Positions 1 through 56,445 of a DNA stretch of 56,445 bases are shown piece by piece. The notes beneath the pieces were generated by a model. The model searched no databases, was not told the origin of the DNA, and saw only the letters and a program-made list of their open reading frames with translations. The position numbers were made by a program, and so were the translations under genes. This DNA comes from a virus (Duplodnaviria > Caudoviricetes), in the IMG/VR virus record IMGVR_UViG_3300031718_000013, positions 1 through 56,445 of that record; one strand, written 5' to 3'. Position 1 is the stretch's first letter; the number at the start of each line of letters is the position of its first letter.

Positions 1-127
1 ATCCACGTGCCGAGCCGCACCAACAGACCGTCGATCGTCGATTTTGCCTTGACCGGCGCCGGCGCGATCAATTCCTCAAGAATGCCGAAATCCTTGCTGG
101 CGATCGCGCGCGCGATTGTTCTCTTTT
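1..127. repeat. Terminal direct repeat (circular assembly overlap), copy 1
   Basis: Identical to 56319-56445; 127 nt equals a common assembler k-mer size. Confidence 0.97.
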
Positions 128-140
128 CTGTTGCGTTCAT
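1..140 (-). CDS. 5' part of a hypothetical protein that crosses the circular junction and continues to 55844
   Basis: ATG at 140 gives MNATEKRTIARAIASKDFGILEELIAPAPVKAKST, in frame with ORF 55844-56389; ATGA overlap with the upstream ORF. Confidence 0.8.
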   Translation of the reverse strand, partial: MNATEKRTIARAIASKDFGILEELIAPAPVKAKSTIDGLLVRLGTW

Positions 141-313
141 TTTCTCGCCCCGGTTAATTGTCTAACGAGCTTGCGACCGCAATTCTCCGCAGCTTGGATC
201 GTCCGATGATGATGGTCGCAGCCCCGGATTATGCGCGCAGTCTCGCTATCAAACGCATACGCGCGATGAATCCGGGGCTTGCCAGTGAATTGCCGTGTGA
301 TCGGAAGAATCAT
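137..313 (-). CDS. Small hypothetical protein (58 aa), early leftward operon
   Basis: Manually translated MILPITRQFTGKPRIH...CDHHHRT...; TAATG and ATGA overlaps with both neighbours. Confidence 0.65.
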   Translation of the reverse strand: MILPITRQFTGKPRIHRAYAFDSETARIIRGCDHHHRTIQAAENCGRKLVRQLTGARK

Positions 314-552
314 TAAACAGCCCTGTAGCAGTCTCCGTGCTTGGTCAGACGGCCCACGCGCACCAGTCCGGACATGATCATTTCGAATTGATGCAGTGTT
401 ACCCCGTGCGCCATCGCGGCCGCGTACATAGGTCCACCAGGGACGCCAAAGCCCGTGTCCCCCTCGCGCACGGTATCGACGATCGCATTGGCCAGCATCG
501 CGACGGCCAGCATTTGCTTCGTTGTCGGATTCTTTCCCATTGGATGCGCCAT
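313..552 (-). CDS. Hypothetical protein, possible winged-helix fragment
   Basis: ORF track; GAGG upstream; first gene of the leftward operon. Confidence 0.7.
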   Translation of the reverse strand: MAHPMGKNPTTKQMLAVAMLANAIVDTVREGDTGFGVPGGPMYAAAMAHGVTLHQFEMIMSGLVRVGRLTKHGDCYRAV

Positions 553-594
553 GATTATTTCCTCACTCCCGCTTGGTGTTTAGTAGCTTGCGTA

Positions 595-685
595 ACCGAT
601 AATTGTGAGTACCGTATTTCATCGGTGTATGTCAATACCCTCACGCCGTTTGACTGACATTTATTTTGCGCGCTAAGATGCTCGC
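595..685. promoter_or_regulatory. Divergent promoter region
   Basis: Minus-strand TTGACA at 635-630; plus-strand TTGACT(650-655)-18 nt-TAAGAT(674-679); ACCGAT/ATCGGT inverted repeat at 595-626. Confidence 0.55.
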
Positions 686-865
686 ATGAAAATCAAGATA
701 CCCGCTAAACCCGAGACTCAATCCCGCCTGGTATCCGTCCGCTTCACGCCGTCTGAATATGGCGAGCTGGCCCAGGCGGCCGCGGCTGTAGGCTTGGACG
801 TTGCCCCGTTTATCCGCGTCGTCGTGGCTAACGCCGTGCGGCTCGGTGTCGAGCTCGCAGACTGA
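686..865 (+). CDS. Ribbon-helix-helix DNA-binding protein (59 aa), probably leaderless
   Basis: MKIKIPAKPETQSRLVSVRFTPSEYGELAQAAAAVGLDVAPFIRVVV matches the RHH/MobC-like pattern; ATG lies 6 nt after the -10 box. Confidence 0.7.
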   Translation: MKIKIPAKPETQSRLVSVRFTPSEYGELAQAAAAVGLDVAPFIRVVVANAVRLGVELAD

Positions 866-1053
866 TGGGCCGTCGCAATTTCGGCAAGCGCTTCAATGAC
901 CCGCGCAGCAAGGGCGGCCGAACCCGGCGCCAAATACTCGCGGAAGCGATGCAGGGCAAACCCCTCGCTTCGCACCACAAAGATGCCCGCTGCCGGAATT
1001 GCGGGTTTGCGCTCGGCTCCCACGCTCAGGGCCGCGGTTGCCCGCCCTATTGA
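865..1053 (+). CDS. Small basic protein with CxxC...H...C motif
   Basis: ORF track; TGATG overlap with the RHH gene. Confidence 0.55.
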   Translation: MGRRNFGKRFNDPRSKGGRTRRQILAEAMQGKPLASHHKDARCRNCGFALGSHAQGRGCPPY

Positions 1054-1158
1054 CCACCGCAAGATAATTCGGATACACCTAGCGCTAGGCATTCCGGTTG
1101 ACTGGATACCCGCGTGTCAGCTCGCGGTCTCCATTCGCATCATACCCGGAGAGCATTA

Positions 1159-1191
1159 GGGGCCAGGGAGACTTGGCCCCGTCCCTTTTTT
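1159..1191 (+). terminator. Probable intrinsic terminator
   Basis: GGGGCCA...TGGCCCC stem, then 5 nt and T6. Confidence 0.5.
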
Positions 1192-1202
1192 ACCCGCCCC
1201 TG

Positions 1203-1231
1203 TTGACAGTCTCCCCGCCCCGGCGTACAAA
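1203..1231 (+). promoter_or_regulatory. Sigma70-type promoter
   Basis: TTGACA-17 nt-TACAAA. Confidence 0.6.
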
Positions 1232-1954
1232 GCGATCATGATGCGAATCTGGAGACGTTCACAGCTGACCCATTCCTGAGACCTGGGAGACCCGCCCGTA
1301 ACCCCTGCCTTGCGCTCTCCGTGCGCTCGCGACAACCCTTGCGGTCTATTCAACTCTGGAGAGTAGCTTCTCCAGCGCTTCGCAACCTCGCTGAGCGTCA
1401 TCAGCAGCCGCAACCGCTCCCGCCCCGCGTCACTTATCCAACCTCGGGCGGATTTGAGAGCGTCGTTGGTTTGGTCGTTGGCCCAAAATGACATGCCTTT
1501 CAGACGCGAAAGACAAGCAGGGGGGAGCGGAAGATCTGATCTGCTCGCATTATCTCGCCATGCCAAGGCGCCTCAACCTGATTGCTTCCCCCTCTCTCTC
1601 AATCAGAGCTGGAGTCCGCACCGTGCACGTTCACTCGCACGTGCACTTCGATGTTGCCCAGCATCCAAGGCGAGTGAGACTGCCTACCGAATGGTAGGTT
1701 GATAAACGCTGTTACCGTGCTCAGAGCTCGCCAGGACGCTCCGAGCGGCGCCGGGATAACCGAGCACCCGTGCCCTCGCACGCGCGGCGCGATGCGCTGT
1801 GCATGTTCTCTCTCACACGTCGAGCAAAAAAAATTCTGGGAATGAACAGTGAGAAGGAAAACCCGACATGTTGAAGCGTGTTCGCGATCGAGGATCTGGA
1901 TCCGGAAGTAGAGGCTGAGATGGTGCATGATCCAGAGAGGGTAGTCGGGGCGGA

Positions 1955-2458
1955 AAAATTGGAGTAGAAATTCTGTGCAAGCCAATCCATTCGTTCAATC
2001 CGCTACCAGGTCCGGCGAACTATTTTCCGGCTCGCAATACGATTTTCCTGAGTTTTGCCTACCAACTAGCTGAACAACGTGACGCTGCGGTGATTGTGAT
2101 CGGCGCAAACAAGGATGACTATGACGATTATCCTGACTGCCGACCGGAATACATCAAGGCCATTCAGAATGTCTTCAGGATCGCTTGTCGCCGAAATATT
2201 AGCGTATGGGCACCGTTAATTGGCATGACCAAAGCAGAAGTCGTAGCCGAAGCTGTCAAACTTAGAGTGCCTCTCGAAAAGACAATCAGTTGCTACAAGC
2301 CGCGCGACCGAACGCCATGCGGCACCTGCAACGCCTGTTTACTCCGCAAACGGGCCTACGAAGCAAATGGACTGGAGTTCAAACTGGAACGGTTGGAAGT
2401 CGATTTCGGGGAGTCAAAACCGTGGGAGAAGTTGACGGAGCGAACGGAAAGGGCGTAA
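1955..2458 (+). pseudogene. queC: 5'-truncated QueC-like (7-cyano-7-deazaguanine synthase) gene
   Basis: Frame reads YFPARNTIFLS...IGANKDD..YPDCRPEY...APLIGMTKAEVV...TISCY...CGTCNAC; in-frame TGA at 1928-1930 and no SGGxDS ATP-binding motif upstream. Confidence 0.75.
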
Positions 2459-2550
2459 GACAAGTTCACCGATGGTGATGCCGGCAAACTACACGGTGAT
2501 TCGCTTTACGTGGGTGCTCGGGACGGGGCGGCCGGTGCTGAAATACTGAG

Positions 2551-2628
2551 ATGATCCTGAGAGGCGATGCGAGGTCGATACCGCTGGCCGATGGCTGCGT
2601 GCAGACCTGCGTGACGAGTCCGCCGTAT
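2551..2628 (+). CDS. DNA methyltransferase, resident 5' segment (MILRGDARSIPLADGCVQTCVTSPPY)
   Basis: Typical beta-class N4C/N6A MTase N-terminus ending in motif IV SPPY; same frame as the segment starting at 3271. Confidence 0.85.
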
Positions 2629-2664
2629 CTCGAAGATGACGCTATTACACGTAGGGTGGCAGAG

Positions 2665-3141
2665 CTAAATTCCGACGTGATTCAGCGACTTTGCCTGCTG
2701 GTATCGAGCTTCCATGCGATTGCTCAGGTCGAGCGAACGCACAGATGCGCCGACATGACCGCGGCCTTTGGCGATGCGTTGTTTGGCGGATGTGGTCTTG
2801 AGCGCGCGCAAGGCGATGCAGTTGATGGCTTGGCTGCGCTTGATTCGCAGGAAGGGAATAAGCGCGCGAAGAACCGTGACCGCGCGCTTGTCGGTGACTC
2901 CCCACGTCCACAGTTCGCGACCATTGGGCGCGCTCGGCTTCGCTTTGCCCAGCTTGCCGCCGAATACTTCTACAAACAGGTCGAGCGCTTGCGGAGTTAC
3001 CTGCCGAATGTGGACGCGCTCGCTGTAGGTTGCCTGCGTCGAATTTTTGAGAACGCGCACGGCGTAAGTATTTTTCTTGATTCCGATGGTGCCGTCCGAG
3101 TCGAGGACGCCAGCCAGATACGCAAGGTCGATTTTCTTCAT
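2665..3141 (-). CDS. Single-motif LAGLIDADG homing endonuclease (158 aa), antisense to the MTase
   Basis: MKKIDLAYLAGVLDSDGTIGI helix, ..VHIRQ.., FGGKL, W.W.V, LIPFLRIKRSQA. Confidence 0.9.
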   Translation of the reverse strand: MKKIDLAYLAGVLDSDGTIGIKKNTYAVRVLKNSTQATYSERVHIRQVTPQALDLFVEVFGGKLGKAKPSAPNGRELWTWGVTDKRAVTVLRALIPFLRIKRSQAINCIALRALKTTSAKQRIAKGRGHVGASVRSLDLSNRMEARYQQAKSLNHVGI

Positions 3142-3148
3142 GTCGCGC

Positions 3149-3177
3149 ATACTACCAGATGGGGGCGACGTGATAAA
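3149..3177 (-). promoter_or_regulatory. Promoter of the LAGLIDADG gene (extended -10, leaderless)
   Basis: Minus strand TTTATC-17 nt-TAGTAT with TG upstream of the -10; ATG at 3141 is 7 nt downstream. Confidence 0.55.
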
Positions 3178-3188
3178 GGGGGTGAAGG

Positions 3189-3269
3189 ATGATAATTCGA
3201 GCAGATGCGCGAAACATCCCATTGGCGGACTCGTCGGTTCAAACCGTAGTAACGAGTCCGCCTTATTGA
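3189..3269 (+). CDS. Replacement MTase N-terminus carried by the cassette ([26 protein letters not shown])
   Basis: 20/26 aa identical to 2551-2628; purine-rich RBS AAGGGGGTGAAGG; ends TAT TGA C. Confidence 0.8.
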
Positions 3270-3270
3270 C

Positions 3271-4467
3271 TGGGGCCTGCGCGACTACGGACTATCGCCC
3301 TTGATTTGGGGCGGGAGCATCGGTTGCGCGCACGAATGGAACGAATCGGTCTCGCGCGAAGGATTCATTTCGAAAACGCGCTGGCAGCATACGACGAACG
3401 GGCGCGGGGAGGCTCAGCCGGACGAAAAGCGGTTGCGGACGTCGACCACACGCGAGATGAGGCCCGAGGCTTGGGGCCAGGTCAGTCAGGGATCAGTCTG
3501 CGGTGACTGCGGGGCGTGGCGCGGGAACTTCGGTCTTGAACCAACACCGGAACTGTACGTTCAGCACGCGGTCGAGATTTTCAGGGAAGTGCGGCGGGTG
3601 CTGCTGAATGACGGGACGGTGTGGCTGAATCTGGGGGATTCCTACAGCGGCGGAAACAAGGGGAACTCGGGACCGCTGAGACCGGGCGATAAGCAGGCGA
3701 CCAATTCCGGCTCGCACGATACCCGCCGGCGCGACAGCGGGAATCTGACGCCGGCGCGCAATGGCGGCTCGGGCCTTGAGTCGAAGCAGCTAGTTGGACT
3801 GCCGTGGCGGGTGGCGTTCGCGCTTCAAGCCGATGGTTGGTATTTGCGGTCGGACATCATCTATTCGAAACCGAACCCGATGCCCGAGTCAGTTCAAGAT
3901 CGGCCTACTCGATCCCATGAATACCTCTTTCTGCTTTCCAAGAACCCGCGCTACTACTACGACGCGCGCGCCATCATGGAACCGGCCAGCGAGAGTACGC
4001 ACGCGAGAATCGCGCAACCGAGGATTCTTTCGCAGATGGGTGGCGATAAAGACTATGGCCAGGAATCAAATCGGTCGTGTCGAAAGGCGCTAACGAACCT
4101 CGCCTTGCGGGCGCGCGGCGTTACACCCAAAGCCGAACTGGGAACCATCGGGGTCGTGAGGAACAATCCAGACTTTCAGAAAGCGACCGCCGACATAGTG
4201 CTCGAGCGCAACAAGCGATCAGTCTGGACGATAAACGGCCAGCCAACGCCCGAAGCCCACTTCGCCGTATTTCCCGAGAAGCTGGTCGAGCCTTGTGTGC
4301 TTGCTGGCTCGCGCGCGGGCGACCTTGTTCTGGATCCGTTTCTTGGCTCGGGAACGACAGGTCGCGTGGCAGAGAGATTGGGCCGACGCTGGATCGGACT
4401 CGAGCTTTCGGCGCCCTACATCGAAATCGCGCGCAATCGAACCGCGCAACAGGGACTCGGACTCTGA
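3271..4467 (+). CDS. DNA methyltransferase, 3' segment (beta-class N4C/N6A)
   Basis: [45 protein letters not shown], motif [12 protein letters not shown]. Confidence 0.92.
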
Positions 4468-4468
4468 G

Positions 4469-5134
4469 ATGGCCAAGCTACGCAAGCGCCCACGGAGCCG
4501 GAAGCAGCGGATGCGAGACGCGCAGCCGTACCGGCGCCGGACCGATCGAGCGCCCAGGTGCGGAAGGTGCGGACGGTGCCACAAGCGATTCACCGAGGCT
4601 CAGTGCTTTCGCCGGCCAAAGAGACGCAAGCGCGGTCCAAGCCCGCGGGTGCGGAGAGTGAACGAGCTCGGCCAGAAGGTCTACGCGCCTTACGGGTATC
4701 TGACGACGATCCAGCGATTCGGCCACCTGCTGACCTGGAGCGAGATGACGGGGAAGGAGCAGTACGTGACGTCGCTCCGGATCAAGGGTGCGTACAATCG
4801 GAACAAGTATTGGCGCGATCTCGGGTATCCGAACCTGGTGAACGCGCGCGCGGCGCTGGTGAAATACCGGGAAGAGCGGCTGCGAGAGGGATTACTGCCG
4901 GCTGAGAAGGCCCGACGTCTTGAGCGGGTAGTCAGCCACGAGGCCGAGCCACGGAGCGCGGACGAGACTCGCGCGGCCCAGATTTACGAAGAGGGGAGGC
5001 TTGAGCGGGCGCGAGTCAGGGACGGGAGCCGGCCGCTTTTGGGCGGATTGCTTGTGGCGGGGAATTACGACCCCGAATATCTGATGCGGCGGGAAATGAG
5101 AATTCTGGACGTAATGAGCAGGTGCGCGCAATGA
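4469..5134 (+). CDS. Arg/Lys-rich hypothetical protein with Cys cluster
   Basis: ATG directly after the MTase stop; part of ORF 4295-5134. Confidence 0.6.
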   Translation: MAKLRKRPRSRKQRMRDAQPYRRRTDRAPRCGRCGRCHKRFTEAQCFRRPKRRKRGPSPRVRRVNELGQKVYAPYGYLTTIQRFGHLLTWSEMTGKEQYVTSLRIKGAYNRNKYWRDLGYPNLVNARAALVKYREERLREGLLPAEKARRLERVVSHEAEPRSADETRAAQIYEEGRLERARVRDGSRPLLGGLLVAGNYDPEYLMRREMRILDVMSRCAQ

Positions 5135-5388
5135 AGTGGATCGTCGTTGAGCCGATTATTACCCCTACCAAAACCAAGGCGTTCCGTGTGCTGACCAAGG
5201 AAGGTGCCCCGCTCGGATATATCCGTTTCTTTCCCCGCTGGCGTAAATTCTCGTTCTACCCCGACCCCTATACGCTTTACGAAACCGACTGCCTGCGAGA
5301 TATTGCCAATTTTTGCGAAGCGGAGACTCGGGCTTGGCGCGAGGGAATTAAATCGCGTAATAATTCCGATCTGAATATTCAGAATTAA
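5131..5388 (+). CDS. Hypothetical phage protein
   Basis: ATGA overlap; G.I.FF.RWRKF.F.P...T.Y..DCLRDIA pattern. Confidence 0.7.
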   Translation: MKWIVVEPIITPTKTKAFRVLTKEGAPLGYIRFFPRWRKFSFYPDPYTLYETDCLRDIANFCEAETRAWREGIKSRNNSDLNIQN

Positions 5389-5433
5389 TTCCCCTGTTTG
5401 CTATCTCGCGCGCGATGTGAAATAAAATCGCGC

Positions 5434-6276
5434 ATGGCTCAAGAACCGAATGAACCGCCAGTCGGCGCTATGGCGGCGCGCGCGGTCCCGACAGTAGGGA
5501 ACGAAGGCTTGGCGGTCGCAACTCGACCCGCAGATTGGAATTCCGGAGATTCGAATAATGCGATGTACCGCGACCCCGCGGAACTCGCGTGGGAGCGTGC
5601 TCAGCAGATGGCACAGGAAAATCAGGCCGACACCGCATCGGCGGGAACGACGGAGGCGAACGAAGCAAATGGAAGCGCCCAGGTGCAGCAACCCAAAGTG
5701 CCCAAGCGTGGCCGGGGGCGACCGAAGAAAAGCGTCAAAGACCCGAGTACTCGAGCGGGACGAGACGTGGACCTTCGAGTGTCTGACGTGCGGGGGGATC
5801 TCAACCCAGACTCGACCCAACTTTCGACGGTACGTGAACCGCGAGCTGATCAAGGAAGGGAAGCTCCCGCCGAGCGCCGCAATCTGAAACCGAACGGCCA
5901 TGCCGAGTCATCGTGGATCGCCGCGCAGCGGACCCAGGCTCAGGCCGGCTTTCAGGCTTTCGAGCGATTCGCGCAGGAGGCGCCGCTCAAGGATGCGTTC
6001 GATCTCTACAATGAATTCGTGAGGCGAATCACCGACGCCGGCAACCGGATCGAGTCGCGGCGCCAGCAGGATAAGGCGACGGAGAATACCTGCTCGTTCT
6101 GCGAACACGTGTTCACCTATCGCGGGACGGACAGTTACTACGCTAGGCGCGCGTTCGATCTCCCCGACGGCCGGGTTCAGGTCGTGATGAGTTGCCGGAA
6201 GAGCCGGTGCATCGACGAGTTCGATCGGTACGTGAACGACATGGCGATGCGGTCGCGCGCGACACTTCACGAGTAG
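5434..6276 (+). CDS. Hypothetical protein with AT-hook-like KRGRGRPKK and C-terminal Cys motif
   Basis: ORF track; CSFC...C....C at the C-terminus. Confidence 0.7.
   Translation: MAQEPNEPPVGAMAARAVPTVGNEGLAVATRPADWNSGDSNNAMYRDPAELAWERAQQMAQENQADTASAGTTEANEANGSAQVQQPKVPKRGRGRPKKSVKDPSTRAGRDVDLRVSDVRGDLNPDSTQLSTVREPRADQGREAPAERRNLKPNGHAESSWIAAQRTQAQAGFQAFERFAQEAPLKDAFDLYNEFVRRITDAGNRIESRRQQDKATENTCSFCEHVFTYRGTDSYYARRAFDLPDGRVQVVMSCRKSRCIDEFDRYVNDMAMRSRATLHE
5669..5887 (+). CDS. Nested out-of-frame zinc-ribbon protein (72 aa)
   Basis: GGAGG upstream; MEAPRCSNPKC...FECLTCGG; GC3-rich codons. Confidence 0.5.
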   Translation: MEAPRCSNPKCPSVAGGDRRKASKTRVLERDETWTFECLTCGGISTQTRPNFRRYVNRELIKEGKLPPSAAI

Positions 6277-6280
6277 GCCG

Positions 6281-6496
6281 ATGCCGGGTATTCCAATTCC
6301 GCGATTGACGAAGCAAGGGGCCGTAATTCAGCGCCGAGAGTTCAAGGTGATCCACGCGGTCACTCCCGCTGAATTTGAGAAGGCGCTGAACGCGGCTGCC
6401 GAACTCGAAGATTGGACGCTGACTCACTTCGCGGTGGCGACAATTCCGAATGGGACCGGCGCCCACTTTACCGCCGTGATGGAGCGCGATGCCTGA
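6281..6496 (+). CDS. Hypothetical protein
   Basis: ORF track; operon spacing. Confidence 0.65.
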   Translation: MPGIPIPRLTKQGAVIQRREFKVIHAVTPAEFEKALNAAAELEDWTLTHFAVATIPNGTGAHFTAVMERDA

Positions 6497-6806
6497 AATC
6501 GACAAGAACGGCACCCCCGGCAAACTGATCCATAGCAAGGTCCGGCTCATCCCGCTCGGTCCTGCCGGTCCATTCGTCCTTCAAGGCTTTATGATCGAGA
6601 TGGACGCCGATGGCCCGAATCCGGTCGGTCACATGGAGTTTCAGGCGGACTCTCTCGCACTACTCGAACACGGCTTCCGAGGTCTCCAGCAGGCTTACGC
6701 GGCAGCGATGAAGCAGATGATCGACGAATTCAACGCGGCGAAGCTGATGACCCAGCACGACGCCTCGACCGTGGCGCGGATCAACAAGAGCAAGGGCGGT
6801 TCCTGA
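6489..6806 (+). CDS. Hypothetical protein
   Basis: ORF track; GGAG RBS. Confidence 0.7.
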   Translation: MPEIDKNGTPGKLIHSKVRLIPLGPAGPFVLQGFMIEMDADGPNPVGHMEFQADSLALLEHGFRGLQQAYAAAMKQMIDEFNAAKLMTQHDASTVARINKSKGGS

Positions 6807-6807
6807 G

Positions 6808-6942
6808 ATGAAAGCGAATACTGGTCCCGGTAGCGGCACGAACACGCCGAATATCAAGGGCAAGTTGCAAACCACGTCGCACTGGTCCGGCAAAGACCAT
6901 AAGGACAAGACGCACACTCGGCGGAAAAAGGGCGCGAAGTAG
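6808..6942 (+). CDS. Small basic protein (44 aa) ending RRKKGAK
   Basis: Manual translation; exactly fills the gap between neighbours. Confidence 0.6.
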   Translation: MKANTGPGSGTNTPNIKGKLQTTSHWSGKDHKDKTHTRRKKGAK

Positions 6943-7164
6943 ATGCCGGACGAGTTCGAGCAGATTCGCGATGCGATGAGTCGCGCCGCCAAGCGAAACG
7001 GTCGAGCGCATCTTTTCGACGAGGAAATACTCCTGCTCGACAACCAGCGCGCGATCTGCGCGACACTGGCGCTCATCATCCGCGGTGGTCGCGTGCCGAT
7101 CGAGACCGCGCGCGAGATGCAGGAACGCGCGAAGGCGATCACGAAGATTCTCGAAGGAACTTAG
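6943..7164 (+). CDS. Hypothetical protein
   Basis: ORF track. Confidence 0.65.
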   Translation: MPDEFEQIRDAMSRAAKRNGRAHLFDEEILLLDNQRAICATLALIIRGGRVPIETAREMQERAKAITKILEGT

Positions 7165-7269
7165 GTCTTCGCTGAAAAGCGAAGTGGCGGGAGGCGAGCC
7201 AGCCCCCTCGTGAGCGATTAGACCACTCCAATCGCTCTCATGGCGAGTCGATCAAGCTCGCCGCACAAA

Positions 7270-7581
7270 ATGAAAACACCTATTGAGCCGCGCCAGCTTG
7301 AATTTGCCCGAATGCGATTGGCCGAACAGTTTCACGCTGCGCTCCTGAAAATGCTAATCGAGTGCGAAGTGGATGAGAAATTCGTTGCCAAGCGAATAGG
7401 CAAATCAGAAGGCTATGTCCGTGAGAAATTGAACGATCCGAGCAAGCTCACGTTAGACGACATAGCCACCTTCCCGCTGGCGGTGGCCGCCGACTTCAAC
7501 AATGTCAGTTTCACGCCGATTCGCTATCGAGACCTCACCGCGGAATTTGAGCGCTTCCGACAGTTGCGCGCCGTTGCATGA
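7270..7581 (+). CDS. XRE-like helix-turn-helix protein
   Basis: EKFVAKRIGKSEGYVREKLNDPSKLTLDDIA pattern. Confidence 0.6.
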   Translation: MKTPIEPRQLEFARMRLAEQFHAALLKMLIECEVDEKFVAKRIGKSEGYVREKLNDPSKLTLDDIATFPLAVAADFNNVSFTPIRYRDLTAEFERFRQLRAVA

Positions 7582-9275
7582 AACTCGACTACAGCCGCGT
7601 TCGCGAATTCATCCGCCGCCTCAAGATTCGCGACAAGGGCAAGCAGCTCGTCCCGTTCCATCCCAATCCCTGCCAAGATCGCTTTCTCGATCTGCTCGAA
7701 AAGATGGCCAAGGAGCATCGGCCACCCCGAGTCATCATCGACAAGTCTCGCCGCGTCGGGATCTCGACGATCTGCATCGCGCTCCTGAACGCGCAGTGCT
7801 GCGGAGCCTCAGCGATGGAAGCTCGCGTGCTCGCCCACCTTGGAGACACCGCGCGCATCCTGCTCGACATGGCCAAGGGAATGCACCAATCGATCGGCCT
7901 TCCCGCCGACTGGCGCCGGCGGCACAACCTGCTGTACGACGTCGACGAAGTGAATAGCTCGAAGCTGACGGTGCAGACTGCGAAGACGACCGGTGGTGGT
8001 CGCGGCGGCGGATTCACTTCACTCTTGGCCAGCGAGGCCGCGTATTACGAGAAAGAAGGATCGTTCTTGGCGCTGCTCCCGACTCTGCCGAGATACGAAA
8101 ACTTTTTCTGTTTCATCGAGAGTACGGCGAACGGTCGCGTCGATGTGGGCGGCGAGTTCTACGATACCTTCCGCGCCGCGATCAATCACGAGAGCGAGTT
8201 CGAAGCGTTCTTCGTGCCCTGGTACGAAGATCCGACGTGTCTCGCCGATCCGATCATCCTGAAGCGCCCAACTGACGATGAGAACGCCAAAGAGGAAAAG
8301 GAGATCCGCAAGAAGTATAAACTCACAGATCAGCAAATGGCTTGGCGGCGGCTGGCCTACATGAACGAGGCCGAGGGGCTGTTGCAGAAGCTCCACCAGG
8401 AGTTTCCGATCTCGTGGGAAGAGAGTTTCATTTCGTCAGATAATCCCACTTTCGGTAAAGACGAGATTGAGCTCTGCGAGAAGAACGTCAAACCTCCCCG
8501 CTGGCGCACGAATTTGATGCGGAGACCGGATGGTCGCGTCGAGATGAGCGGGAGCGGTGGATTCTTCAAACTGTGGGAGCAGCCGCATCCTGGCCACGAG
8601 TACTTTCTCGGTGCTGATGCCGCGCGCGGAGAGTTGCATGGAGACTTTTCAGCCGCGGTAGTGTGGAACGGAACGACTGGCCATCAAGCGGCGGCATTTC
8701 AGGAGCGGGCTGGCGTCGATGAGTTTGCGGATCTGCTCGATAAGCTAGGGCGCTTCTATAACAACGCCATGATGACGCCCGAGACCTCGTGCAATCTCGG
8801 GAACACGGTCATGCAGCGGCTGCTCAAGGAATTCAAGTATCCGCGCTGGTACAGGTGGCAGGGACGTGATGATCGACTGCGGCCGGGAACGTCGAGTCGA
8901 CCGTCGATCGGTTTCGAAACGACCGCGCGCACCCGACACATGCTGACTCACCACTTCCGGATCTCGCTCCGAGAGGGCGAAGTTTTCCCGCACGATGAGG
9001 AATTTGTGTCTCAGGTGAAGTTGGCCGAGACGACCTTCGGGATGCGGTGGGACGTGAGATTTGGCCACGACGATGTTCTGATGGCGGGACTCGTGGGCTG
9101 GCTGGCGCGGATCCAGTTTCCACCGAGAAGAACAATCGCACAGGCGGTGCGAGCGGTAGACAATCCAGAAGACCCGGCGAATCCGGAAACGATCAGGGAC
9201 GTGGGGCCGGTGGCGGAGGCCCATAGACTCAAGGTGATGAGCCGGGCGAGCTGGCGAGAGGGACAAGCAGGATGA
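7578..9275 (+). CDS. terL: Terminase large subunit
   Basis: Walker A KSRRVGIST, Walker B LLASEAAY, coupling motif IESTANG, nuclease acids FLGADAARG and HDDVLMA. Confidence 0.93.
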   Translation: MKLDYSRVREFIRRLKIRDKGKQLVPFHPNPCQDRFLDLLEKMAKEHRPPRVIIDKSRRVGISTICIALLNAQCCGASAMEARVLAHLGDTARILLDMAKGMHQSIGLPADWRRRHNLLYDVDEVNSSKLTVQTAKTTGGGRGGGFTSLLASEAAYYEKEGSFLALLPTLPRYENFFCFIESTANGRVDVGGEFYDTFRAAINHESEFEAFFVPWYEDPTCLADPIILKRPTDDENAKEEKEIRKKYKLTDQQMAWRRLAYMNEAEGLLQKLHQEFPISWEESFISSDNPTFGKDEIELCEKNVKPPRWRTNLMRRPDGRVEMSGSGGFFKLWEQPHPGHEYFLGADAARGELHGDFSAAVVWNGTTGHQAAAFQERAGVDEFADLLDKLGRFYNNAMMTPETSCNLGNTVMQRLLKEFKYPRWYRWQGRDDRLRPGTSSRPSIGFETTARTRHMLTHHFRISLREGEVFPHDEEFVSQVKLAETTFGMRWDVRFGHDDVLMAGLVGWLARIQFPPRRTIAQAVRAVDNPEDPANPETIRDVGPVAEAHRLKVMSRASWREGQAG

Positions 9276-55843: not shown

Positions 55844-56445
55844 TTAATTCCCCGCGGCCGCCGATACGGTCGGCGCTTCGTCCGCCTGGTAGTGAAAATG
55901 ATCGCACGGACAGGATTGCATTTGGCACTTGAGTAAATTGTCCAGCTCGTCTTTAGCGTGACACGATCCATCGTGCCCACAGGCGCACAGGCGCAATTTC
56001 GCTTTCGCTGCGAATGCCGACACGCGCACGGCCGTCTTCTGGCCTAATAGCTGCTCCATATTCTGTGGTGGCAGCATCTTAGTCAGACCCGTGAAATTCA
56101 GCGGCTTAGCGGCTCGCGCGCGTCGAGTCCGGCACGATATACACAGGCAATCCGCCGGATGTATCCAGGGCGCGCACGCATAGTGCGCGTATCCCGATTG
56201 CTTCGATCCGATATGGAAAGGCACAAGCCGGCCCATCGAAAGCGGCCGCACGCATACCCGGCAATTCGTCTTGCCGGCAGTCTCGATCGCTTTCTTGGAC
56301 TCAGGATCGAATTTCCGGATCCACGTGCCGAGCCGCACCAACAGACCGTCGATCGTCGATTTTGCCTTGACCGGCGCCGGCGCGATCAATTCCTCAAGAA
56401 TGCCGAAATCCTTGCTGGCGATCGCGCGCGCGATTGTTCTCTTTT
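55844..56445 (-). CDS. 3' part of the Cys-rich protein that starts at 140 across the junction
   Basis: Open frame to the window end; C..C...H..C and CACGH...C....C.C..F motifs. Confidence 0.75.
   Translation of the reverse strand, partial: KRTIARAIASKDFGILEELIAPAPVKAKSTIDGLLVRLGTWIRKFDPESKKAIETAGKTNCRVCVRPLSMGRLVPFHIGSKQSGYAHYACAPWIHPADCLCISCRTRRARAAKPLNFTGLTKMLPPQNMEQLLGQKTAVRVSAFAAKAKLRLCACGHDGSCHAKDELDNLLKCQMQSCPCDHFHYQADEAPTVSAAAGN
56319..56445. repeat. Terminal direct repeat, copy 2
   Basis: Identical to 1-127. Confidence 0.97.

Follow-up and report, generated by a model that had tools for sequence, protein, structure and literature searches.

The window analysed here is the complete, 56,445-nucleotide (nt) phage record IMGVR_UViG_3300031718_000013, which ends in an exact 127-nt direct terminal repeat (positions 1-127 and 56319-56445). 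On its plus strand lies a beta-class N6/N4 DNA methylase gene that is split into pieces over positions 2551-4467. The pieces are parted by a LAGLIDADG homing endonuclease gene on the opposite strand and by a four-letter spacer, TGAC. This spacer places an in-frame stop codon between the codons for the catalytic motif SPPY and those for the WGLRDY that follows it. The features of the locus, in window coordinates, are these.

2551-2628, plus strand: copy 1, the displaced resident methylase N-terminus, a remnant of 26 codons from the ATG to the Tyr codon of SPPY
2551-3192, plus strand: open reading frame (ORF) 1, copy 1 together with the codon-aligned antisense frame of the endonuclease gene; 213 codons, beginning MILRGDARSIPLADGCVQTCVTSPPY
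2629-2664, no strand: 36-nt stretch from the copy 1 Tyr codon to the endonuclease stop codon, read from the sequence
2665-3150, minus strand: single-motif LAGLIDADG homing endonuclease gene; 161 amino acids from the ATG at 3150, with a longer frame opening at 3222
3176-3188, plus strand: purine-rich ribosome-binding site, AAGGGGGTGAAGG, immediately 5' of the ATG at 3189
3189-3266, plus strand: copy 2, a complete replacement N-terminus of 26 codons with SPPY at its end
3224-3262, plus strand: hairpin with an 11-base-pair stem and a 17-nt loop; its 3' arm consists of the Thr-Ser-Pro-Pro codons and ends 4 nt 5' of the stop codon
3267-3270, plus strand: spacer TGAC, which separates the SPPY codons from those for WGLRDY; an in-frame stop and a single pyrimidine
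3271-4467, plus strand: methylase C-terminal part in the +1 frame, with its stop; 398 codons, PF01555 (E 5e-41), PHROG 67

Copy 2 starts at ATG 3189-3191 and ends with CCT (3261-3263) and TAT (3264-3266). TGA (3267-3269) and a single C (3270) follow, and TGG (3271-3273) and GGC then open the C-terminal part. The junction CCT TAT TGA C TGG GGC, with the methylase in the +1 frame behind it, had been picked out by an earlier model reading of the letters (the sequence-only reading) and is present at 3261-3276. The C-terminal frame consists of WGLRDY and 392 further codons, with its stop at 4465-4467, and its assignment to the beta class also draws on CcrM, M.MboIIA, M.RsrI and M.PvuII. When copy 2 and the C-terminal frame are joined, with X at the break, positions 1-220 of the 221 in the PF01555 profile are covered (E 3.6e-43); the C-terminal part alone covers 20-220. 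Both beta-class motifs are present: SPPY (motif IV) in copy 2 and DPFLGSGTT, the S-adenosylmethionine-binding FxGxG motif, in the C-terminal frame. Scanning 2300-3500 for promoters and terminators picked up a single weak promoter-like site, and the hairpin was not called a terminator.

An artefact of assembly or sequencing is a negligible prospect. The sole sequencing run with the stretch, a DNA run, is probably its source sample, no RNA run being listed for it, and the 56,348-nt contig of a second assembler, identical over 2400-3600, probably comes from the same sample, so it is not independent support. Nevertheless, the second assembler agrees, at a depth of ~21, and the layout recurs in 110 distinct loci from many samples.

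In the window, 50 of 78 nt are the same in the two N-terminus copies. At the protein level 19 of 26 residues agree, 12 of them through different codons. This indicates that the copies diverged as working genes in different lineages, so the term replacement N-terminus is apt. Copy 2 is whole in every locus examined. In relatives, copy 1 mostly ends ...VTSPP, and otherwise ...VTS, ...VT, ...GD.. or after only ~10 residues; in some it is missing. Thus, copy 1 is a decaying remnant and not an exon. The sequence-only reading had correctly recognised the replacement N-terminus, the displaced resident copy, the LAGLIDADG gene between them and the need for a +1 frame change at the junction.

The same reading had also offered removal of 2627-3268 from the RNA, by a group-I-like intron joining copy 1 to the C-terminal part. 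In the window this join would be in frame (...CCG TAC TGG...), with boundaries U| (T2626) and G| (G3268). We consider it highly improbable and do not retain it. No intron family matched among 4227 Rfam models (E up to 10, positions 1-9000, both strands), where only three chance-level matches appeared, and the antisense endonuclease gene occupies 486 of the 642 nt of the segment. In most relatives copy 1 is cut before the Tyr or Pro codons, or is absent, and the U| boundary then fails. Furthermore, the frame of copy 1 relative to the C-terminal frame is not fixed (15/9/18 loci for the three relations), and about half of the spacer-bearing genes are without copy 1 or endonuclease.

The spacer and the endonuclease gene in related loci

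We compared the junction in 24 IMG/VR relatives whose match begins at WGLRDY. In 21 of these the junction is seamless, with ...SPP[YF] followed at once by [WFY]GLRDY, and one has another architecture. One phage, represented twice (L045 and L048), shares TAT TGA C TGG with the window; its methylase is 43% identical and there is no endonuclease nearby. Seven loci, with TGAC, TGAT or TAAC, were returned when IMG/VR was scanned for SPPY and WGLRDY codons parted by any four letters. Allowing one to six letters returned 89 stretches, 20 of them with WG[LQ]R[DK]Y downstream. All 20 open with a stop codon, as TAG, TGAC, TGAT, TAAC, TGAAT or TAGTTC; the remaining 69 are ordinary in-frame methylases of other subfamilies or chance matches. 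Three-letter insertions in IMG/VR were TAG in 4/4 true methylases, two other rows being chance matches outside methylases, and five-letter insertions were TGAAT in 3/3. No in-frame insertion of a sense codon at the SPPY/WGLRDY junction was found in the IMG/VR scan. The four-letter scan of metagenome contigs and species genomes gave 110 rows with 95 distinct contexts (TGAC 69, TGAT 12, TAAC 8, TAAT 3, TAGC 2, CGAT 1).

Altogether, 110 distinct phage and metagenome loci, forming 64 clusters at 70% identity, have a spacer of 3-6 nt exactly between the SPPY and WGLRDY codons. The tally is TGAC 75, TGAT 13, TAAC 8, TAAT 3, TAGC 2, CGAT 1, TAG 4, TGAAT 3 and TAGTTC 1. A stop codon opens the spacer in 109 of the 110, and the fourth letter is C or T in all 102 four-letter spacers. 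Conservation of TGAC in homologues, which the sequence-only reading proposed as a check, is seen in 75 of 110 loci, and that of the stop more widely still. The codon before the spacer is TAT or TAC in all loci; the choice between them does not differ between spacer-bearing genes (75/33) and controls (72/47; p 0.17). In every spacer type but TAGC, the triplet before TGG (GAC, GAT, AAC, AAT, TAG or TTC) differs from a Tyr codon at a single position of the three.

Stop-keeping transitions of TGAC (TGAT and TAAC) are common, whereas stop-destroying ones (CGAC and TGGC) are absent from the surveyed spacers. This is the pattern expected under selection on the stop, with the proviso that the loci are not independent events. 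LAGLIDADG enzymes leave 4-nt 3' overhangs, and a retained overhang, as a one-off scar of cleavage, had been one model for TGAC. That model falls, given that the spacer recurs in 110 distinct loci, is stop-led in 109 and is not a duplication of the flanking letters.

A blastn search with the junction against 50,697 phage records, which was not exhaustive, met only spacer-less methylases (42 query letters against 38 record letters) and no cultured example. The idea that TAG spacers belong to phages that read TAG as sense found no support, ORF gains in L106, L145 and L144 being no larger than in control loci.

Sequence upstream of the site was searched by local tblastn with eight endonuclease sequences, in distinct loci with at least 750 nt available. 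An endonuclease homologue (32-53% identical) lies 93-263 nt upstream of the site in 41 of 84 spacer-bearing loci, mostly on the opposite strand. Conversely, none was present in 109 spacer-less controls (Fisher 1e-18), which are the members with enough upstream sequence of a fresh control set of 119 distinct loci. There was likewise none in 149 other loci of an earlier survey. The spacer occurs without the endonuclease in 43 of the 84. To account for the 15 spacer-bearing rows, a tree of 88 C-terminal sequences requires no fewer than 12 changes, and well-supported branches force at least six of these. Spacer-bearing methylases are scattered over the tree; hence the trait moves horizontally, which fits a mobile cassette.

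The endonuclease motif, LAYLAGVLDSDGTIGI, forms residues 9-24 of the 161-residue ORF. The best family match of the protein is PHROG 5046 (E 4.5e-18). A profile of the window endonuclease and seven homologues matches I-MsoI (9e-18, 3e-8), I-CvuI (5e-7) and I-CreI (~1e-5) over ~120-150 residues. Pfam LAGLIDADG_1 is matched by six of the eight homologues (best E 2.6e-6), and the window's own protein has no match in Pfam. By these profile matches the enzyme belongs to the I-CreI-type single-motif LAGLIDADG class. Its target, judged from the insertion place alone, would be the DNA coding for SPPY|WGLRDY. A word-based search of IMG/VR had returned no relatives of the endonuclease; the later local tblastn on fetched loci did find them.

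Several further observations concern this gene. PHROG 5046 is labelled 'HNH endonuclease', a label that looks wrong, since the profile matches to solved structures are all to LAGLIDADG enzymes. In Gordonia phage Ailee (MH976507.1, 2101-3975) a C5 DNA methylase is annotated as joined around a LAGLIDADG ORF that is ~33% identical to the window endonuclease; no Rfam intron family matched in that stretch. Relatives in cultured Gordonia phages thus occupy a C5 methylase, an unrelated methylase class. In seven of 49 endonuclease-carrying loci (L174, L187, L195, L196, L208, L211 and L217), which may be one lineage, the endonuclease is on the methylase strand and its frame is that of the C-terminal methylase part in 7/7, with stops intervening. 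L284 has another, weaker LAGLIDADG-like match (1313-1657, 27-30% identity), on the downstream side of its spacer. Two spacer loci lacking a LAGLIDADG gene have ORFs just upstream that look, by eye, to encode HNH-type endonucleases (L092 67-729 and L102 6285-6785).

The window endonuclease gene contains no TTA, CTA or TCA codon, so the codon-aligned antisense frame that continues from copy 1 stays open. The stop of ORF1 (TGA, 3190-3192) overlaps the ATG of copy 2 (3189-3191) as ATGA. Endonuclease genes of related loci have no TTA or TCA codon and at most one CTA, and in 35 of 42 such loci the antisense frame is open across the entire gene. The chance of this, given local codon use, is 0.07 in the GC-rich window, 8e-3 in L158, 5.6e-4 in L156 and 1.4e-5 in L146. 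The antisense-frame stop falls -19 to +34 nt from the copy 2 start codon in 30 of the 35 open-frame loci, and ATGA-type overlaps occur in six loci, the window included. In most relatives the endonuclease stop directly abuts copy 1, where the window has 36 nt between them. Over the 42 loci the antisense frame stands in the three possible relations to the C-terminal methylase frame 15, 9 and 18 times. With no fixed frame relation, the purpose is coupling and not one fused protein. We also considered a single ORF fused from copy 1 into the C-terminal part. Only 15 of 42 loci have the two frames in agreement, and just four (L139, L192, L216 and L233) have no stop in the fused frame, so this candidate was rejected.

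The hairpin upstream of the spacer

The arms of the window hairpin, GGCGGACTCGT (3224-3234) and ACGAGTCCGCC (3252-3262), are 11 nt long, 100% complementary and 17 nt apart, confirming the stem that the sequence-only reading had noticed. Its absence from the resident copy is also confirmed, copy 1 having GCC GAT where copy 2 has GCG GAC. The 5' arm does, as claimed, pair with 2613-2624 as well (12 nt, 100%), but this is trivial because copy 1 carries the same Thr-Ser-Pro-Pro codons. A 131-nt segment of the window folds at -46.9 kcal/mol (z -2.26), dominated by the stem, and the 48 nt up to the Tyr codon at -25.3 kcal/mol (z -5.8). Inverted repeats with an exact seed of 11 nt and separate arms no more than 60 nt apart number just three in the 56,445 nt, this hairpin included. 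Taken alone, the window hairpin is uncommon, not extraordinary.

Across loci we folded the 48 nt ending at the Tyr codon and counted a hairpin as strong when z was below -3. Strong hairpins occur in 35 of 107 spacer-bearing genes, compared with 3 of 119 fresh controls (Fisher 3e-10) and none of the 70 genes in the control set used first. Ser-Pro-Pro codons make up the 3' arm throughout. The 5' arm varies with the Ser and Pro codons used, at the cost of different amino acids there; the arm pairs include AGCCCGCC with GGCGGGCT, TCTCCGCC with GGCGGAGA, TCGCCGCC with GGCGGCGA and TCTCCCCC with GGGGGAGA.

RNAalifold gave no consensus for 33 hairpin-bearing sequences in a plain codon alignment, because there are two hairpin registers that differ by one codon. 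The registers were then split. In register B (15 sequences) 97.5% of cells pair, a share inflated by the picking of sequences for good folding in both registers, and both sides are changed in 4 of 8 pairs, a count that this picking does not inflate. The covariation score is 0.401, compared with 0.121 for shuffled sequences (0/500 as high) and at most 0.108 when slid. Stem covariation, another check proposed by the sequence-only reading, is found in register B and hardly at all in the window's own register A (1 of 7).

A CCCCC run (CCCCC(C/T)) stands just before the Tyr codon in 46 of 108 spacer-bearing loci (for example L170, L210 and L251) compared with 8 of 119 controls. Genes lacking the hairpin mostly carry this run, and it faces the UGGGG on the far side of the spacer. 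It may be a signal or reflect shared descent.

Comparison with the other loci shows, at the level of sequence, the cassette architecture together with selection on spacer and hairpin, both of which look selected.

Expression of the methylase across the spacer

Our best explanation, to which we give a probability of about 0.6, is that the stop-led spacer forms the right end of a homing-endonuclease cassette, where it would protect the allele from its own nuclease, and that ribosomes pass it by recoding. The cassette would have invaded a phage methylase gene at the DNA coding for the catalytic SPPY and the following WGLRDY. It would have brought an antisense I-CreI-type gene free of TTA, CTA and TCA, through which ribosomes from the old methylase start could read. 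Next would come a ribosome-binding site and the replacement N-terminus, its ATG overlapping the read-through stop for ATGA coupling, then a hairpin built from the last N-terminus codons and, finally, the 4-nt spacer TGAC. By pushing apart the two halves of the endonuclease target, the spacer would render the invaded allele immune to its own enzyme. Ribosomes at UAU with UGA-C in the A site would terminate slowly. A fraction, aided by refolding of the hairpin in their wake, may keep peptidyl-tRNA(Tyr), move forward over the spacer and take up translation again at UGG. Such a hop would yield the normal SPPYWGLRDY protein at a reduced level.

Recoding could also be a simple +1 frameshift, as in prfB or antizyme, with SPPY-Asp-WGLRDY as its product. 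This sub-case, proposed by the sequence-only reading as a hairpin-assisted shift, fared unevenly. Recoding as such is favoured by the conserved stop and fourth base and by the enriched, covarying hairpin; the product SPPY-D-WGLRDY is doubtful. UGA-C is indeed the commonest spacer (75/110). In the 102 four-letter spacers the next codon would be GAY (Asp) in 89 (88 of them stop-led), AAY (Asn) in 11 and AGC (Ser) in two, so that the inserted residues are all small and polar; a purine in fourth place, giving Glu, Lys or Arg, is never seen. However, a +1 shift leaves the stop-led spacers of 3, 5 and 6 nt unexplained. The in-frame Asp/Asn allele was not found (0/4), though loss of one T would create it, re-pairing from UAU to AUU is poor, and the sequence upstream has no element resembling a Shine-Dalgarno sequence. 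We judge a plain +1 shift unlikely. The 3-6 nt spacers, all stop-led bar one, the lack of sense-codon insertions and the 2/3 match to a Tyr codon before TGG lead us slightly to prefer a 4-nt hop over a +1 shift inserting Asp, or Asn or Ser in the variants.

A number of points weigh against passage by recoding. At the window junction tRNA(Tyr) cannot re-pair in the +1 frame (UAU to AUU). A cognate landing codon is absent, no UAY following and the GAC before TGG matching a Tyr codon at 2/3 positions. There is no Shine-Dalgarno-like element upstream, where 3240-3263 reads CAAACCGTAGTAACGAGTCCGCCT and has no GGAGG-like run. Cleavage by the endonuclease, and its target site, are putative. Seventy-two of the 107 spacer-bearing genes have no strong hairpin, the window's register A hardly varies over its 17 sequences, where 1 pair of 7 has changes in both partners, and the choice of well-folding sequences colours both registers. 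Finally, the spacer may be common to many loci by descent of the cassette.

Constraint on the protein is also weaker. The ratio of nonsynonymous to synonymous substitution (dN/dS) is 0.41-0.94 in seven close spacer-bearing pairs, such as L186/L237 (0.067/0.136) and L173/L213 (0.092/0.208), compared with 0.05-0.07 in close spacer-less pairs such as L077/L080 (0.018/0.253). C-terminal constraint is thus relaxed 6- to 8-fold in spacer-bearing genes, in a set of frames of at least 200 codons, which favours intact genes. In addition, the C-terminal frames of L100/L130 (113 codons), L206 (79) and L218 (65) are short, and the CGAT spacer of L200 has no stop; these are likely to be decayed copies.

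These data bear on the main rival, a weaker form of the scar model in which the gene is dead. A selfish cassette would carry a spacer that guards against re-cleavage and leaves the methylase out of frame, the stop would end a harmless 26-residue peptide, and the hairpin would have another role or none. The dN/dS values (against ~0.06 in spacer-less pairs), the truncated frames of L100, L206 and L218 and the stop-less spacer of L200 all suit a dead gene. So do the lack of a slippery site, landing codon or Shine-Dalgarno-like stimulator at the junction, and the prospect that the spacer is common by cassette descent and not by selection, given the horizontal spread seen in the tree. Yet a replacement N-terminus that has a start of its own, an antisense frame left open and coupling of stop to start would all be superfluous in a dead gene, and these are kept across endonucleases only 32-53% identical. 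Nor would it account for common stop-keeping spacer variants in the absence of CGAC and TGGC, for in-frame 3-nt spacers that are always TAG and never a sense codon, or for hairpins that are enriched and covary. Moreover, 34 of 36 complete C-terminal frames are intact, at 268 or more residues, and dN/dS stays below 1. Loss of the gene is therefore, in our estimate, rather unlikely, if the most serious alternative.

We read the spacer-bearing methylase as under weakened but real constraint, which would fit inefficient recoding and also young pseudogenes. The features that make sense only with copy 2 joined to the C-terminal part, the full PF01555 domain, the intact frames and dN/dS below 1 favour a methylase that may still be made.

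The enzyme could instead be split, with a 26-residue motif IV peptide and a separately initiated C-terminal protein that assemble non-covalently. Function in two chains is known for genes split by free-standing endonucleases such as MobA or MobE (10.1101/2022.08.31.505936). In the window, though, stops interrupt the C-terminal frame 21 and 24 nt before TGG, and no ATG, GTG or TTG comes after them. A conserved start at the third codon (Leu) does not fit either, as this is CTG in the window and TTA, TTG or CAG in relatives. We regard a split enzyme as very unlikely.

Upstream of the locus, a QueC-like gene at 1985-2458 is represented by its C-terminal half only (PF06508 profile positions 116-209), and stops close its frame 5' of ~1985. 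The plus strand of the whole record has no SGGxDS PP-loop motif. The gene looks truncated or displaced.

Comparison with known systems

The cassette of MobA and T4 gene 60 is said to go back to work by Bonocora in 2011. Its 50-nt insert opens with a stop, guards against the nuclease and can persist once the nuclease is lost (10.1101/2022.08.31.505936). As in that system, a free-standing homing endonuclease is accompanied here by a short insert that is non-coding and lies where the coding sequence of the target gene is highly conserved. This insert is again stop-led right after the last decoded codon (TAT TGA in the window), would be protective and would have to be passed by ribosomes. It also outlives the endonuclease, 43 of 84 loci here being without one. 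Unlike gene 60, the insert is 3-6 nt and not 50 nt, and there is no matched landing codon. Nor are take-off codon and stop enclosed in a stem-loop; hairpins, in the loci that have one, lie 5' of the Tyr codon. The endonuclease is of LAGLIDADG type, whereas MobA is of HNH type, and the host gene encodes a DNA methylase and not a topoisomerase. The cassette described here also brings a whole replacement N-terminus and keeps the antisense endonuclease frame open.

The prfB gene, for release factor 2, has a programmed +1 frameshift at CUU UGA C, and UGA-C is a weak termination context. At the junction, likewise, the point of the required +1 move is marked by an in-frame UGA with C as the next base. 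In contrast to prfB, the P-site codon is UAU or UAC with no +1 re-pairing, no Shine-Dalgarno-like element stands 3 nt upstream, and other spacer lengths exist. A prfB-like slip fails two of its three defining features at the window junction. The antizyme +1 frameshift, at UCC UGA U, is eukaryotic, senses polyamines and uses a 3' pseudoknot. It shares with our loci a shift at UGA plus a pyrimidine without good re-pairing, a next codon GAY (Asp) and an upstream stimulator, but nothing here points to metabolite regulation.

I-CreI, I-MsoI and I-CvuI are homodimeric LAGLIDADG enzymes that lie inside group I introns of organelle rRNA genes. The cassette enzyme resembles them in its ~160 residues and single LAGLIDADG motif. 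Unlike them it is free-standing and antisense to its target gene, and its cleavage is putative.

Actinophage DNA methylases are invaded at conserved codons by a ShiLan domain with a hidden HNH endonuclease, or by a lone LAGLIDADG insertion (PMC11855218, PMC9957025). There, as here, the endonuclease element is neither an intein nor a recognisable intron, and the host frame is kept stop-free through it. The ShiLan-type element differs in being in frame, in being thought to be translated within the methylase and in having its endonuclease on the same strand. A duplicated N-terminus, a stop-led spacer and a frame change are not described for these insertions in the text seen: PMC9957025 has no instance of 'frameshift', 'stop codon' or 'duplicat', and PMC11855218 none of 'frameshift'. 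PMC10885494 lists 'methyltransferases' among genes 'known to contain a frameshift'. The literature searched, as far as its text was available, held no description of a stop-led spacer or of recoding in phage DNA methylase genes (it included PMC3711429, PMC5009743, PMC10885494, PMC11855218, PMC9957025 and 10.1101/2022.08.31.505936). The loci thus have the look of a widespread and previously undescribed family of LAGLIDADG cassettes in phage methylase genes.

To our knowledge, T4 gene 60 is the only well-studied natural case of a homing endonuclease travelling with RNA that ribosomes skip, and it long stood alone. Tentatively, the present loci might form a second natural family of translational bypass, far larger than gene 60. 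In more than 100 phage methylase genes, peptidyl-tRNA(Tyr) would hop 3-6 nt over a stop-led spacer planted by a LAGLIDADG element, driven by refolding of the hairpin or, in a second class, by the C-run facing UGGGG. The cassette would have evolved its stop-free antisense frame and stop-start coupling to keep the host gene expressed.

If ribosomes do pass the spacer, this would be a second and much more diverse bypass set, with at least 110 loci, 64 clusters, four spacer lengths and two upstream sequence classes. Such a set could show the minimal signals by which a bacterial ribosome slips forward over a stop codon. Even if the methylase is dead, the cassette would be a new way for a selfish nuclease gene to occupy a host gene, with a replacement start, a readable antisense frame and translation coupled across the cassette. 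Phage annotation is affected as well, in that such methylases will be called pseudogenes or split genes.

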